NCBI RefSeq assembly: GCF_003790525.1
Contig: NZ_CP033635.1
DNA from: Escherichia coli
GTDB taxonomy: Bacteria; Pseudomonadota; Gammaproteobacteria; Enterobacterales; Enterobacteriaceae
Length of the DNA stretch: 64,000 bases
Strand: one strand, 5' to 3'
Part shown: positions 22,317-26,668 of the stretch, in pieces
Numbering within the stretch: the first letter of the stretch is position 1
Layout of the letters: each line of letters begins with the position of its first letter
Notes under the pieces: model-generated
What the model was told of the DNA's origin: nothing
The model's database searches: none
What the model saw: the letters and a program-made list of their open reading frames with translations, nothing else
Made by a program: the position numbers and the translations under genes

Positions 22317-23201
22317 ATGAAGCCTTTTTTGCGCTGGTGTTTCGTTGCGACAGCACTTACGCTTGCAGGATGCAGTAATACTTCCTGGCGTAAAAGTGAA
22401 GTCCTCGCGGTACCATTGCAACCGACTTTACAGCAGGAAGTGATTCTGGCACGTATGGAACAAATCCTTGCCAGTCGGGCTTTAACCGATGACGAACGCG
22501 CACAGCTTTTATATGAGCGCGGAGTGTTGTATGATAGTCTCGGTCTGAGGGCATTAGCGCGTAACGATTTTTCGCAAGCGCTGGCAATCCGACCGGATAT
22601 GCCTGAAGTATTCAATTACTTAGGCATATATTTAACGCAGGCAGGCAATTTTGATGCTGCCTATGAAGCGTTTGATTCTGTACTTGAGCTTGATCCAACT
22701 TACAACTACGCGCACTTGAATCGCGGGATCGCATTATATTACGGCGGTCGTGACAAGTTAGCGCAAGATGATCTGCTGGCGTTTTATCAAGACGATCCTA
22801 ATGATCCTTTCCGTAGTCTGTGGCTTTATCTCGCCGAGCAGAAGCTCGATGAGAAGCAGGCTAAAGAAGTGTTGAAACAGCACTTCGAAAAATCGGATAA
22901 GGAACAGTGGGGATGGAACATTGTCGAGTTCTACCTGGGCAACATTAGCGAACAAACGTTAATGGAAAGGCTCAAGGCGGACGCAACGGATAACACCTCG
23001 CTCGCTGAGCATCTCAGTGAAACCAACTTCTATTTAGGTAAGTACTACCTAAGTCTGGGGGATTTGGACAGCGCCACGGCACTGTTCAAACTGGCGGTTG
23101 CCAACAACGTTCATAACTTTGTTGAGCACCGATACGCATTGTTGGAATTATCGCTCCTGGGCCAGGACCAAGATGACCTGGCAGAATCGGACCAGCAATA
23201 G
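22317..23201 (+). CDS. nlpI: Lipoprotein NlpI (TPR repeats)
   Basis: 294-aa ORF with lipobox LTLAGCSN and TPR-like repeats. Confidence 0.95.
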
Positions 23202-23307: not shown

Positions 23308-23388
23308 ATGAAAATTGCTGATCAATTTCATGATGAGTTATGTAGACTGGCCGCCATTAATTTTGAGGCACACGTACTACATGGCTGA
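23308..23388 (+). CDS. yrbN: Small protein YrbN (26 aa) in deaD leader
   Basis: ATG 23308 ... TGA 23386-23388 encodes [26 protein letters not shown]; its stop overlaps the deaD start (ATGGCTGA). Below the ORF-track size cutoff. Confidence 0.7.
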
Positions 23389-25270
23389 ATTCGAAACCAC
23401 TTTTGCAGATCTGGGCCTGAAGGCTCCTATCCTTGAAGCCCTTAACGATCTGGGTTACGAAAAACCATCTCCAATTCAGGCAGAGTGTATTCCACATCTG
23501 CTGAATGGCCGCGACGTTCTGGGTATGGCCCAGACGGGGAGCGGAAAAACTGCAGCATTCTCTTTACCTCTGCTGCAGAATCTTGATCCTGAGCTGAAAG
23601 CACCACAGATTCTGGTGCTGGCACCGACCCGCGAACTGGCGGTACAGGTTGCTGAGGCAATGACGGATTTCTCTAAACACATGCGCGGCGTAAACGTGGT
23701 TGCCCTGTACGGCGGCCAGCGTTATGACGTGCAATTACGTGCCCTGCGTCAGGGGCCGCAGATCGTTGTCGGTACTCCGGGCCGTCTGCTGGATCACCTG
23801 AAACGTGGCACTCTGGACCTTTCTAAACTGAGCGGTCTGGTTCTGGATGAAGCTGACGAAATGCTGCGCATGGGCTTCATCGAAGACGTTGAAACTATTA
23901 TGGCGCAGATCCCGGAAGGTCATCAGACCGCTCTGTTCTCTGCAACCATGCCGGAAGCGATTCGTCGCATTACCCGCCGCTTTATGAAAGAGCCGCAGGA
24001 AGTGCGCATTCAGTCCAGCGTGACTACCCGTCCTGACATCAGCCAGAGCTACTGGACTGTCTGGGGTATGCGTAAAAACGAAGCACTGGTACGTTTCCTG
24101 GAAGCGGAAGATTTTGATGCGGCGATTATCTTCGTTCGTACCAAAAACGCGACTCTGGAAGTGGCAGAAGCCCTTGAGCGTAACGGCTACAACAGCGCCG
24201 CGCTGAACGGTGACATGAACCAGGCGCTGCGTGAGCAGACACTGGAACGACTGAAAGATGGTCGTCTGGACATCCTGATTGCGACCGACGTTGCGGCCCG
24301 TGGCCTGGACGTTGAGCGTATCAGCCTGGTAGTTAACTACGATATCCCGATGGATTCTGAGTCTTACGTTCACCGTATCGGTCGTACTGGTCGTGCGGGC
24401 CGTGCTGGCCGTGCGCTGCTGTTCGTTGAGAACCGTGAGCGTCGTCTGCTGCGTAACATTGAACGCACCATGAAGCTGACCATTCCGGAAGTTGAACTGC
24501 CGAACGCAGAACTGCTGGGCAAACGTCGTCTGGAAAAATTCGCCGCTAAAGTACAGCAGCAGCTGGAAAGCAGCGATCTGGATCAATACCGTGCACTGCT
24601 GAGCAAAATTCAGCCGACGGCAGAAGGTGAAGAGCTGGATCTCGAAACTCTGGCCGCCGCACTGCTGAAAATGGCACAGGGTGAACGTACTCTGATTGTT
24701 CCGCCAGATGCGCCGATGCGTCCGAAACGTGAATTCCGTGACCGTGATGACCGTGGTCCGCGCGATCGTAACGACCGTGGCCCGCGTGGTGACCGTGAAG
24801 ATCGTCCGCGTCGTGAACGTCGTGATGTTGGCGATATGCAGCTGTACCGCATTGAAGTGGGCCGCGATGATGGTGTTGAAGTTCGTCATATCGTTGGTGC
24901 GATTGCTAACGAAGGCGACATCAGCAGCCGTTACATCGGTAACATCAAGCTGTTTGCTTCTCACTCCACCATCGAACTGCCGAAAGGTATGCCGGGTGAA
25001 GTGCTGCAACACTTTACGCGTACTCGCATTCTCAACAAGCCGATGAATATGCAGTTACTGGGCGATGCACAGCCGCATACTGGCGGTGAGCGTCGTGGCG
25101 GTGGTCGTGGTTTCGGTGGCGAACGTCGTGAAGGCGGTCGTAACTTCAGCGGTGAACGCCGTGAAGGTGGCCGTGGTGATGGTCGTCGTTTTAGCGGCGA
25201 ACGTCGTGAAGGCCGCGCACCGCGTCGTGATGACTCTACCGGTCGTCGTCGTTTCGGTGGCGATGCGTAA
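23381..25270 (+). CDS. deaD: DEAD-box ATP-dependent RNA helicase DeaD/CsdA
   Basis: ORF from ATG 23381 [33 protein letters not shown]..., motifs [24 protein letters not shown]-rich C-terminal tail; 629 aa. Confidence 0.95.
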
Positions 25271-25294
25271 TCATCGCTGAACAGCGAATACAGT

Positions 25295-25312
25295 CTGTAA
25301 AATAATATATAC
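25295..25312. promoter_or_regulatory. Putative TyrR box upstream of mtr
   Basis: TGTAAAataataTATACA matches TGTAAA-N6-TTTACA in 11 of 12 positions. Confidence 0.45.
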
Positions 25313-25345
25313 AGCCCCGATTTTAATAATCGGGGCTTTTTTTCT
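25312..25345 (+). terminator. deaD rho-independent terminator
   Basis: aGCCCCGAttttaataaTCGGGGCttttttt. Confidence 0.7.
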
Positions 25346-25351
25346 GTCTTT

Positions 25352-25423: not shown

Positions 25424-26668
25424 ATGGCAACACTAACCACCACCCAAACGTCACCGTCGCTGCTTGGCGGCGTGGTGATTATCGGCGGCACCATTATTGG
25501 CGCAGGGATGTTTTCTCTGCCAGTGGTCATGTCCGGGGCGTGGTTCTTCTGGTCAATGGCGGCGCTGATCTTTACCTGGTTCTGTATGCTGCATTCCGGC
25601 TTGATGATTCTGGAAGCTAACCTGAATTATCGAATCGGTTCGAGCTTTGACACCATCACCAAAGACCTGCTCGGCAAAGGCTGGAACGTAGTCAACGGCA
25701 TTTCCATTGCCTTTGTGCTCTATATCCTGACTTACGCCTATATTTCTGCCAGCGGTTCGATTCTGCATCACACCTTCGCGGAGATGTCGCTGAACGTCCC
25801 TGCACGGGCAGCTGGATTTGGTTTTGCACTACTGGTGGCGTTTGTGGTGTGGTTGAGCACCAAAGCGGTCAGCCGGATGACGGCGATTGTGCTGGGGGCG
25901 AAAGTCATTACGTTTTTCCTCACCTTCGGTAGCCTGCTGGGACATGTGCAGCCAACGACCTTGTTCAACGTTGCCGAAAGCAATGCGTCTTATGCGCCGT
26001 ATCTGCTGATGACACTGCCATTCTGTCTGGCATCTTTTGGTTATCACGGTAACGTGCCGAGCCTGATGAAGTATTACGGCAAAGATCCGAAAACCATCGT
26101 GAAATGCCTGGTGTACGGTACGCTGATGGCGCTGGCGCTGTATACCATCTGGTTGCTGGCGACGATGGGCAACATCCCTCGTCCGGAGTTTATCGGCATC
26201 GCCGAGAAGGGCGGTAATATTGATGTGCTGGTACAGGCGTTAAGCGGCGTGCTGAACAGCCGTAGCCTGGATCTGCTGCTGGTTGTGTTCTCAAACTTTG
26301 CGGTAGCGAGTTCGTTCCTCGGCGTTACGCTGGGTTTGTTTGACTATCTGGCAGATCTGTTTGGTTTCGATGACTCGGCTATGGGCCGCTTGAAAACAGC
26401 GTTGCTGACCTTTGCCCCGCCTGTTGTGGGTGGCCTGCTGTTTCCTAACGGATTCCTGTACGCCATTGGTTATGCTGGCTTAGCGGCTACCATCTGGGCG
26501 GCAATTGTTCCGGCGCTGTTGGCCCGCGCATCGCGTAAACGCTTTGGTAGCCCGAAATTCCGCGTCTGGGGCGGCAAGCCGATGATTATGCTGATTCTGG
26601 TATTTGGCGTTGGCAACGCACTGGTCCATATCTTATCGAGCTTTAATTTGCTGCCGGTGTATCAGTAA
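25424..26668 (+). CDS. mtr: Tryptophan-specific permease (HAAAP family)
   Basis: 414-aa polytopic [47 protein letters not shown]... Confidence 0.95.

Follow-up and report, generated by a model that had tools for sequence, protein, structure and literature searches.

The C-terminal tail of the DEAD-box helicase DeaD, encoded in the E. coli DNA analyzed here (a stretch of 64,000 nucleotides, referred to as the window), is best understood as a probably disordered, net-positive Arg/Gly tail that was built by duplication, that has in-frame length alleles presumably derived from slippage, and that likely serves as a flexible electrostatic arm. The probability of this reading as a whole is put at roughly 0.8.

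The gene is deaD (csdA), which encodes the cold-shock DEAD-box helicase DeaD/CsdA; five Pfam domains are present, the nlpI/mtr context is found, and the 3' end matches an annotated deaD gene at 100%. The gene and the elements surrounding the tail are the following:

23381-25270, + strand: deaD (csdA) coding sequence, 629 aa plus stop codon, as given by its Pfam domains and by the annotated 1890-nt deaD in E. coli genomes
24716-24820, + strand: Arg/Asp-rich linker, residues 446-480, between the dimerization domain and the RNA-binding domain (RBD)
24845-25054, + strand: DbpA-type RNA-binding domain, residues 489-558 (PF03880, 73.6 bits), just upstream of the tail
25082-25267, + strand: Arg/Gly-rich C-terminal tail, residues 568-629, 62 aa (PF12343, DeaD_C)
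25313-25345, + strand: intrinsic terminator hairpin, a 10-bp stem with 6 G-C pairs followed by a T-run, between deaD and mtr

A profile search of DeaD identified the DEAD core at residues 30-196 (PF00270, 177 bits), the Helicase_C core at residues 232-340 (PF00271, 111.8 bits), and the DeaD_dimer domain at residues 374-443 (PF25399, 64.7 bits). The protein is identical in sequence to the PDB chains 5gi4 and 5b88, both named DeaD, of which 5b88 spans residues 481-564 and ends in ...LLGDAQ. The Arg/Asp-rich linker is another region of low complexity, in which short repeats are spaced by 9/15/27 nt, and falls between these two solved pieces (5gi4 ends at residue 445, 5b88 starts at residue 481). 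At the DNA level, a segment of 471 nt (24880-25350) that comprises the 3' end of deaD and the downstream intergenic DNA was found to be 100% identical to the corresponding region of deaD in E. coli AR_0077 and to be matched in 5,425 of 5,426 complete E. coli genomes. The start in the list of open reading frames is an upstream TTG at 23315; the annotated DeaD protein starts with MAEFETTF.

The upstream neighbor is an ORF for an NlpI-like TPR lipoprotein (294 aa, 22317-23201), and downstream lies an ORF for a permease (414 aa, 25424-26668) that is named mtr in related genomes. In four of the five E. coli records examined, mtr is annotated 3' of deaD; in the fifth, strain 98190, an IS200C transposase takes its place. 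The DeaD_C match at residues 568-629 and the nlpI/mtr neighbors bear out the preliminary description of this DNA, which had assigned the repeats to the C-terminal tail of deaD. The coordinates it gave, 25081-25260, are right as to location; the start is off the reading frame by one base, and the end lies 7 nt before the last codon.

The match of the tail to DeaD_C has a score of 45.6 bits (cutoff 23.3), and residues 568-629 cover profile positions 1-62 of 62. The 62 residues include 20 Gly, 19 Arg, 7 Glu, 4 Asp, and 4 Phe, and codon choice is strongly biased: 17 of the 19 Arg codons are CGT, Gly is encoded solely by GGT or GGC, and 6 of the 7 Glu codons are GAA. The tail is probably disordered, because none of the solved DeaD structures includes it (5gi4 ends at residue 445 and 5b88 at residue 564); in Pfam, PF12343 carries the name "disordered region" (DeaD helicase C-terminal). 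It can be divided into segments of 10, 11, 15, 13, and 13 residues, of which the last four are:

25112-25144, + strand: unit 1, 11 codons
25145-25189, + strand: unit 2, 15 codons
25190-25228, + strand: unit 3, 13 codons, third copy of a 42-nt family, 86% identical
25229-25267, + strand: terminal segment, 13 residues, not repeated

Several searches detected repetition in this region. Tandem Repeats Finder (TRF) reported a core array whose period is divisible by three, without indels and with a score of 99, and a repeat search found a 42-nt unit in three copies with identities of 74-86%. The unit quoted in the preliminary description, GGCGAACGTCGTGAAGGCGGTCGT, is located exactly at 25118-25141, and the longest exact repeat in the tail is the 18-nt sequence GGCGAACGTCGTGAAGGC, the two copies of which are 78 nt apart:

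25083-25177, + strand: core tandem array, period 33 nt, 2.9 copies, 70% matches (TRF)
25118-25135, + strand: 18-nt perfect direct repeat GGCGAACGTCGTGAAGGC, copy 1, left end-point of a natural 78-nt deletion
25196-25213, + strand: 18-nt perfect direct repeat GGCGAACGTCGTGAAGGC, copy 2, right end-point of the same deletion

A repeat of this kind might be a mere by-product of the extreme Arg/Gly composition, without any history of duplication. The weak global autocorrelation speaks for this view, since the observed maxima were reached in 212 and 107 of 2000 shuffles; even by the latter figure this cruder test is marginal. Because Arg and Gly together make up 63% of the tail, global autocorrelation of nucleotides and amino acids is underpowered, and tests of k-mer recurrence were used in its place. 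Three occurrences of GERREG were matched by 53, and two occurrences of GERREGGR by 72, of 20,000 composition-preserving shuffles. These counts, the TRF score, the 18-nt perfect repeat, and the finding that the E. coli unit occurs in register in relatives, with matches of 86-92% and at least three copies, make an origin from composition alone very improbable. TRF, the 42-nt family, and the recurrence of GERREG thus uphold the proposal that the tail consists of degenerate GGERREGGR / FSGERREG units, and the tandem-repeat search that had been suggested as a check did detect a periodicity, of 33 nt.

The earlier wording "nucleotide-level tandem repeats" holds in that repeats are present in the DNA, but it fails as far as a periodicity independent of the protein is concerned. 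For this comparison, the protein was held fixed and synonymous codons were resampled, with the tail as the source in one case and the remainder of deaD in the other. At lags of 33, 45, 66, and 78, nucleotide autocorrelation was not above this codon null (observed maximum 0.537, null means 0.551 and 0.538), and at lag 33, 1980 of 2000 synonymous resamples equaled or exceeded the observed value. Codon resampling thus found no similarity between copies beyond that due to peptide and codon bias, which would have been a sign of recent duplication or concerted evolution. Since synonymous resampling yields equal or higher autocorrelation, the DNA periodicity is fully explained by the amino acid repeat in combination with the biased codons (CGT, GGT/GGC, and GAA), and the DNA repeat is not evidence of recent duplication. 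As a side observation, the synonymous codons of adjacent units are less alike than expected by chance (lag 33, approximately the 1% tail, uncorrected for four lags). This is a weak hint that adjacent units avoid identical codons, and the dissimilarity could reflect selection against identity that is prone to slippage.

The length of the tail was surveyed in 5,426 complete E. coli genomes, approximately 96% of which have the canonical length of 629 aa. The sequences at which the noncanonical alleles described below differ, in addition to the 18-nt repeats listed above, are:

25127-25138, + strand: CGTGAAGGCGGT (REGG), 12 nt present as a tandem duplication in the 633-aa allele
25090-25097, + strand: 8-nt repeat GCGTCGTG, copy 1, left end-point of a natural 132-nt deletion
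25222-25229, + strand: 8-nt repeat GCGTCGTG, copy 2, right end-point of the same deletion

In the first allele, deaD has 1902 nt and encodes 633 aa, with CGTGAAGGYGGT duplicated in tandem, which adds REGG. With this +12-nt allele as query, 161 of the 5,426 genomes were at least 99% identical and 22 more were 95-99% identical, and a query with the K-12 allele placed 165 genomes in the 90-95% band, in agreement with this number of carriers. Identity over 202 nt is 100% in at least 60 of the carriers, and the carriers include strains 042 and PCN033 as well as records named ST69 and ST70, which are members of phylogroup D. The allele looks like a single inherited event as opposed to ongoing instability. 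The two copies within it differ by one synonymous base; its origin is therefore not a simple clean duplication.

The second allele lacks 78 nt, so that deaD has 1812 nt and encodes 603 aa (WP_005001325.1), and it was found in at least 21 of the 5,426 genomes. The deletion runs exactly between the two 18-nt perfect repeats. Three of its carriers differ from one another by 6-13 SNPs per 582 nt, located on both sides of the deletion, and at the synonymous sites flanking it they correspond to three distinct full-length haplotypes. Recurrent deletion would be expected to leave such a pattern, while a single old deletion followed by recombination could also account for these flanking sequences. The reciprocal 78-nt duplication was present in none of the complete E. 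coli genomes covered by a junction search. A third allele, with a 132-nt deletion between the 8-nt GCGTCGTG repeats, encodes 585 aa and was seen in two genomes of one study series. Finally, in a metagenome contig that carries SNPs of the K-12 type, one 33-nt unit is precisely deleted and a 15-nt deletion is present as well, at a coverage of only 2.5x. For the one-unit deletion, no full-identity match was found in complete genomes, where other crossover registers could hide among the matches at 97.6%.

Deletion alleles were counted with targeted junction queries. These require an exact seed of 28 nt and miss carriers with nearby SNPs (905 genomes had no seed match in the junction search for the 78-nt deletion), so that the genome counts are approximate; indels of 3-9 nt are below the detection limit of the survey. 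A 190-nt tail query evaluated in bands of coverage and identity, which indicated large deletions in only 9 genomes, was misleading because the similarity of the units extends the alignments and alleles with the 78-nt deletion still reach a coverage of at least 80%. Likewise, a 164-nt query representing the 132-nt deletion allele was uninformative, since normal alleles match it as two joined pieces and tie with the carriers.

All five indels observed (12, 15, 33, 78, and 132 nt) are multiples of three and in frame. The prediction that tail length varies between strains is thus confirmed by alleles of 633, 603, and 585 aa, all in frame and bounded by direct repeats, and a comparison of C-terminal lengths across E. 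coli reveals that the repeat number is not identical in all strains. The notion of a tail prone to slippage-driven variation needs to be qualified: indels do lie at repeats, but variation is rare, with about 96% of genomes canonical, and the 12-nt gain appears to be a single event. The junction sequences, which fall at direct repeats, suggest replication slippage or short-homology recombination as the origin of the indels.

Tandem repetition at the DNA level and the existence of length alleles could also be taken to mean that the repeat is a nucleotide-level element, either a contingency locus that switches deaD on and off by phase variation, an mRNA structure, or a regulatory site. Such a role is highly unlikely. 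The period of 33 nt at only 70% identity is not that of a short perfect repeat, none of the five indels shifts the frame, the DNA periodicity is no higher than the protein sequence predicts, no inverted repeats were found in 24550-25300, and differences from copy to copy and from strain to strain are mostly synonymous. The deaD tail shares with contingency loci the repeat-mediated change of length inside a coding sequence; it differs in that its 33-nt unit is long, degenerate (70%), and divisible by three, and in that changes are rare and in frame. The repeat of the deaD tail is not a phase-variable contingency locus.

Evidence for selection on the protein was obtained within E. coli. Ten tail variants were identified among nine alleles of canonical length, of which nine are synonymous and one is non-synonymous (Gly to Ser). 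As nine of ten variants are synonymous where 27%, the share of synonymous sites in the tail, is expected (P = 5.6e-5), the protein sequence of the tail is under purifying selection in this species. The allele of the window differs from that of K-12 by three synonymous changes in the tail. The same data bear on an ORF in the +1 frame (25065-25280, 71 aa, Val-rich), which might be considered a separate overlapping gene, as this frame contains no stop codon anywhere in the tail. A coding sequence rich in CGT and GGT codons is, however, expected to leave an alternative frame open, nine of the ten variants are synonymous in the deaD frame, and the sole proteins found in the +1 frame are deaD fragments that shift part-way and come from raw-read assemblies, which leaves a second gene with a negligible probability. 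An antisense ORF of 425 aa was rejected as a by-product of codon composition.

The comparison was extended to Enterobacterales by searching species-representative genomes with a degenerate DNA pattern for a 12-residue motif, which matched 120 species; among the resulting 121 species loci (these 120 and the window), 119 complete tails were measured. A protein search with the last 150 aa returned mostly gene fragments and was useful for a few named tails and one deletion variant. Counted from the residue after NMQL, the tails of the 119 species are between 50 and 95 aa long (median 76), that of E. coli being 70 aa. Arg and Gly each account for approximately 25% of residues on average, Asp and Glu together for 15.5%, and the net charge is between +4 and +10 in all 119 tails. 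The number of GERR motifs per tail varies from 0 to 5. RRR is found within the last ten residues in 103 of the 119 species, and 85 of the 119 tails end in -DA. Lineages differ in their best TRF period, which is always a multiple of three: Klebsiella and Kluyvera have 33, Citrobacter has 45, Rahnella has 63, and values of 69-75 are found elsewhere. Several species have tighter tails than E. coli, with matches of up to 93%, and in one Klebsiella-like relative the 33-nt array has a match of 90% and is accompanied by a 24-nt duplication. As mentioned above, the E. coli unit itself recurs in relatives. The tail has thus been rebuilt repeatedly by in-frame duplication and loss, composition and charge being kept while exact length and period are not.

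Given such variation, the tail could be seen as a functionless low-complexity appendage in which repeats expand and contract neutrally. Tail length does range from 50 to 95 aa between species, and the deletion alleles, in which 26 or 44 of the 62 residues are gone, occur in clinical isolates. In PMC11850223, which summarizes Xu et al. 2017, a DeaD construct without the C-terminal tail is reported to be still active in vitro, with ATPase and unwinding activities higher than those of the dimeric core. Since strains lacking 26 or 44 tail residues exist, a large part of the tail is not needed for viability. A complete lack of function is nevertheless unlikely, as nine of ten sampled E. coli variants are synonymous (P = 5.6e-5), about 96% of E. 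coli genomes keep the exact length, all 119 complete tails have at least 50 aa after NMQL with Arg and Gly at about 25% each and a charge of +4 to +10, and the terminal RRR is retained in 103 of 119 species.

The preferred reading, a duplication-built tail that acts as a flexible arm, would involve the following steps. The tail would have been built by in-frame duplications of a unit of approximately 11 codons, and the copies would have diverged since then, chiefly at synonymous sites. The exact identity left between them (18, 12, and 8 nt) may provide substrates for replication slippage or for short-homology deletion and duplication, and such events would now and then give rise to viable in-frame length alleles that circulate at low frequency. 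Selection holds the protein sequence within E. coli and, across genera, the composition and net positive charge. The tail would then most likely act as a flexible electrostatic arm making non-specific RNA contacts beside the folded RBD, and it would supply multivalent weak interactions for the salt-sensitive condensates or foci of DeaD.

For a possible role of the tail in RNA binding or condensate formation, published work provides evidence on the whole protein and on related helicases; it does not directly support the claim in the preliminary description that the tail mediates RNA binding. In cells, DeaD assembles into foci (PMC7414142), and in vitro the protein forms liquid droplets in a salt-dependent manner (PMC12758526). 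For the related RhlE helicases, RNA binding, unwinding, and phase separation were found to be modulated by their C-terminal disordered regions (PMC11260450). The main RNA anchor of DeaD is the folded DbpA-type RBD (residues 481-564), according to PMC11850223. A literature search retrieved no work that ties RNA binding or condensates to the DeaD tail specifically, no dissection of this tail comparable to that of the RhlE C-terminal regions, and no paper on length polymorphism of the deaD tail.

The tail can be compared with several disordered regions. The most direct counterpart is the DeaD_C family (PF12343) of E. coli DeaD/CsdA, which corresponds to the same region over the whole 62-position profile without any difference. 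The C-terminal disordered regions of P. aeruginosa RhlE1 and RhlE2 (PMC11260450) are likewise basic and fast-evolving extensions on a conserved helicase, and they are disordered, as the DeaD tail probably is; in contrast, they belong to a different sequence family, and in DeaD a folded dimerization domain and an RBD precede the tail. Another example is the disordered C-terminal half of RNase E (PMC1616957, PMC4435900), with Arg-rich microdomains that evolve by indels while composition is kept and that support access of a DEAD-box helicase to RNA. These segments differ from the DeaD tail in that they are part of a scaffold nuclease, not of a helicase, and are not tandem repeats of one unit.

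The DeaD tail also resembles the RGG/RG boxes of eukaryotes in being Arg/Gly-rich, probably disordered, and repeat-built. Such boxes, found for example in LAF-1 and Ded1/DDX3, are associated with RNA binding and condensates. Their definition, reportedly that of Thandapani et al. 2013, is tri- or di-RGG or tri-RG with spacers of 0-4 residues. By this definition (at least two RGG or three RG, each within 4 residues of the next), the tail contains no formal RGG/RG motif: it has one RGG (R5-G7), RG at positions 5, 9, and 31 only, two of them adjacent, and thus di-RG at most, along with six GR. A further difference is that the E. coli unit, GERREGGR, has interleaved Glu and mostly the order GR/GGR, and the tail is not known to carry arginine methylation.

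It is also conceivable, if rather improbable, that the length alleles tune the valency of the tail lineage by lineage and thereby affect condensate behavior, growth in the cold, or persistence. This idea is based on the apparent recurrence of the 78-nt deletion, on the lineage-wide gain of REGG, and on a charge that stays between +4 and +10 despite variation in length and period.

The gene, its domain layout, and the disordered tail with a Pfam family of its own are already known, and the length variation is real but ordinary. The allele survey, and especially the seemingly recurrent 603-aa deletion allele, may add a small new detail. The deaD alleles encoding 585, 603, and 633 aa represent natural variation and not annotation errors. 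As the 603-aa allele has its origin at an 18-nt perfect repeat and apparently recurs, these alleles offer a ready-made natural truncation series, which may be used to study the part played by the tail in RNA binding, in ribosome assembly in the cold, and in DeaD condensates.

Over 24880-25350 the window carries a minority haplotype of E. coli, which is matched at 99% identity or more over the 471 nt in just 169 of 5,425 genomes. K-12 is 97.7% identical to the window over this interval, and the three differences that fall inside the Arg/Gly-rich tail of DeaD are all synonymous. The sole non-synonymous tail variant seen is a GGT to AGT change at tail codon 12, present in the deaD loci of E. coli O157:H7 BB24-1 (L127) and E. 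coli E69 (L094), which converts FGGERRE of unit 1 into FSGERRE, the form found in units 2 and 3. Since the variant codon is AGT and the other units use AGC, this change is a point mutation and does not stem from copying between units. In the collection of 5,426 E. coli genomes, the 3' end of deaD had no match in a single genome, and one genome carried a second copy of this region on a plasmid record.

Codon choice was compared between adjacent units of the tail. At lag 33 in 25082-25189, 1,980 of 2,000 synonymous resamplings gave a nucleotide match equal to or above that observed (uncorrected, with four lags tested). Synonymous codons of adjacent units thus agree less than expected, which could be due either to chance or to an avoidance of slippage-prone identity.

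Two further open frames overlap deaD:

25065-25280, +1 frame relative to deaD: open alternative frame of 71 aa spanning the whole tail, Val-rich, ending in MRNHR
23735-25012, - strand: antisense ORF of 425 aa facing most of deaD, rich in Thr, Val and Phe

Several proteins that databases list from assemblies of raw reads, namely P0007, P0008, P0073, P0075, and P0085, are deaD fragments that switch to the +1 frame at some point within the tail. These switches are probably sequencing or assembly indels within the repeat, and possibly genuine frameshift mutants. The antisense ORF looks like a shadow ORF that results from codon bias.

The gene contains a second low-complexity stretch, and a terminator hairpin lies downstream of the gene:

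24716-24820: Arg/Asp-rich linker between the dimerization domain and the RNA-binding domain, [33 protein letters not shown]
25313-25337, both strands scoring as terminator: deaD terminator hairpin

The linker contains short direct repeats with spacings of 9, 15, and 27 nt, is absent from the solved structures, as is the tail, and differs from genus to genus among the fragments read. The T-run of the hairpin lies on its + side, and the tail on its - side is weaker and T/A-rich. In E. coli strain 98190 (L003), a gene for an IS200C-family transposase lies about 215 nt past the deaD stop codon, in the usual place of mtr, so that alignment to the intergenic DNA between deaD and mtr ends early, at query position 463.

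The same tail in other genera contains arrays that are tighter than in E. coli and of differing sizes:

Tail arrays at deaD loci of other genera
Citrobacter (L008, L045, L059, L089): 45-nt unit, 2.6-2.9 copies, 83-93% match
Rahnella (L043, L044): 63-nt unit, 2.1 copies, 87-88% match
Klebsiella and Kluyvera (L099, L110): 33-nt unit, 2.9-3.2 copies, 86-92% match

In addition, an APRRDD(A/S)x segment is duplicated near the tail end in many of these loci. The tighter arrays and the duplication of this segment point to independent duplications in these genera that would be more recent than those in E. coli.
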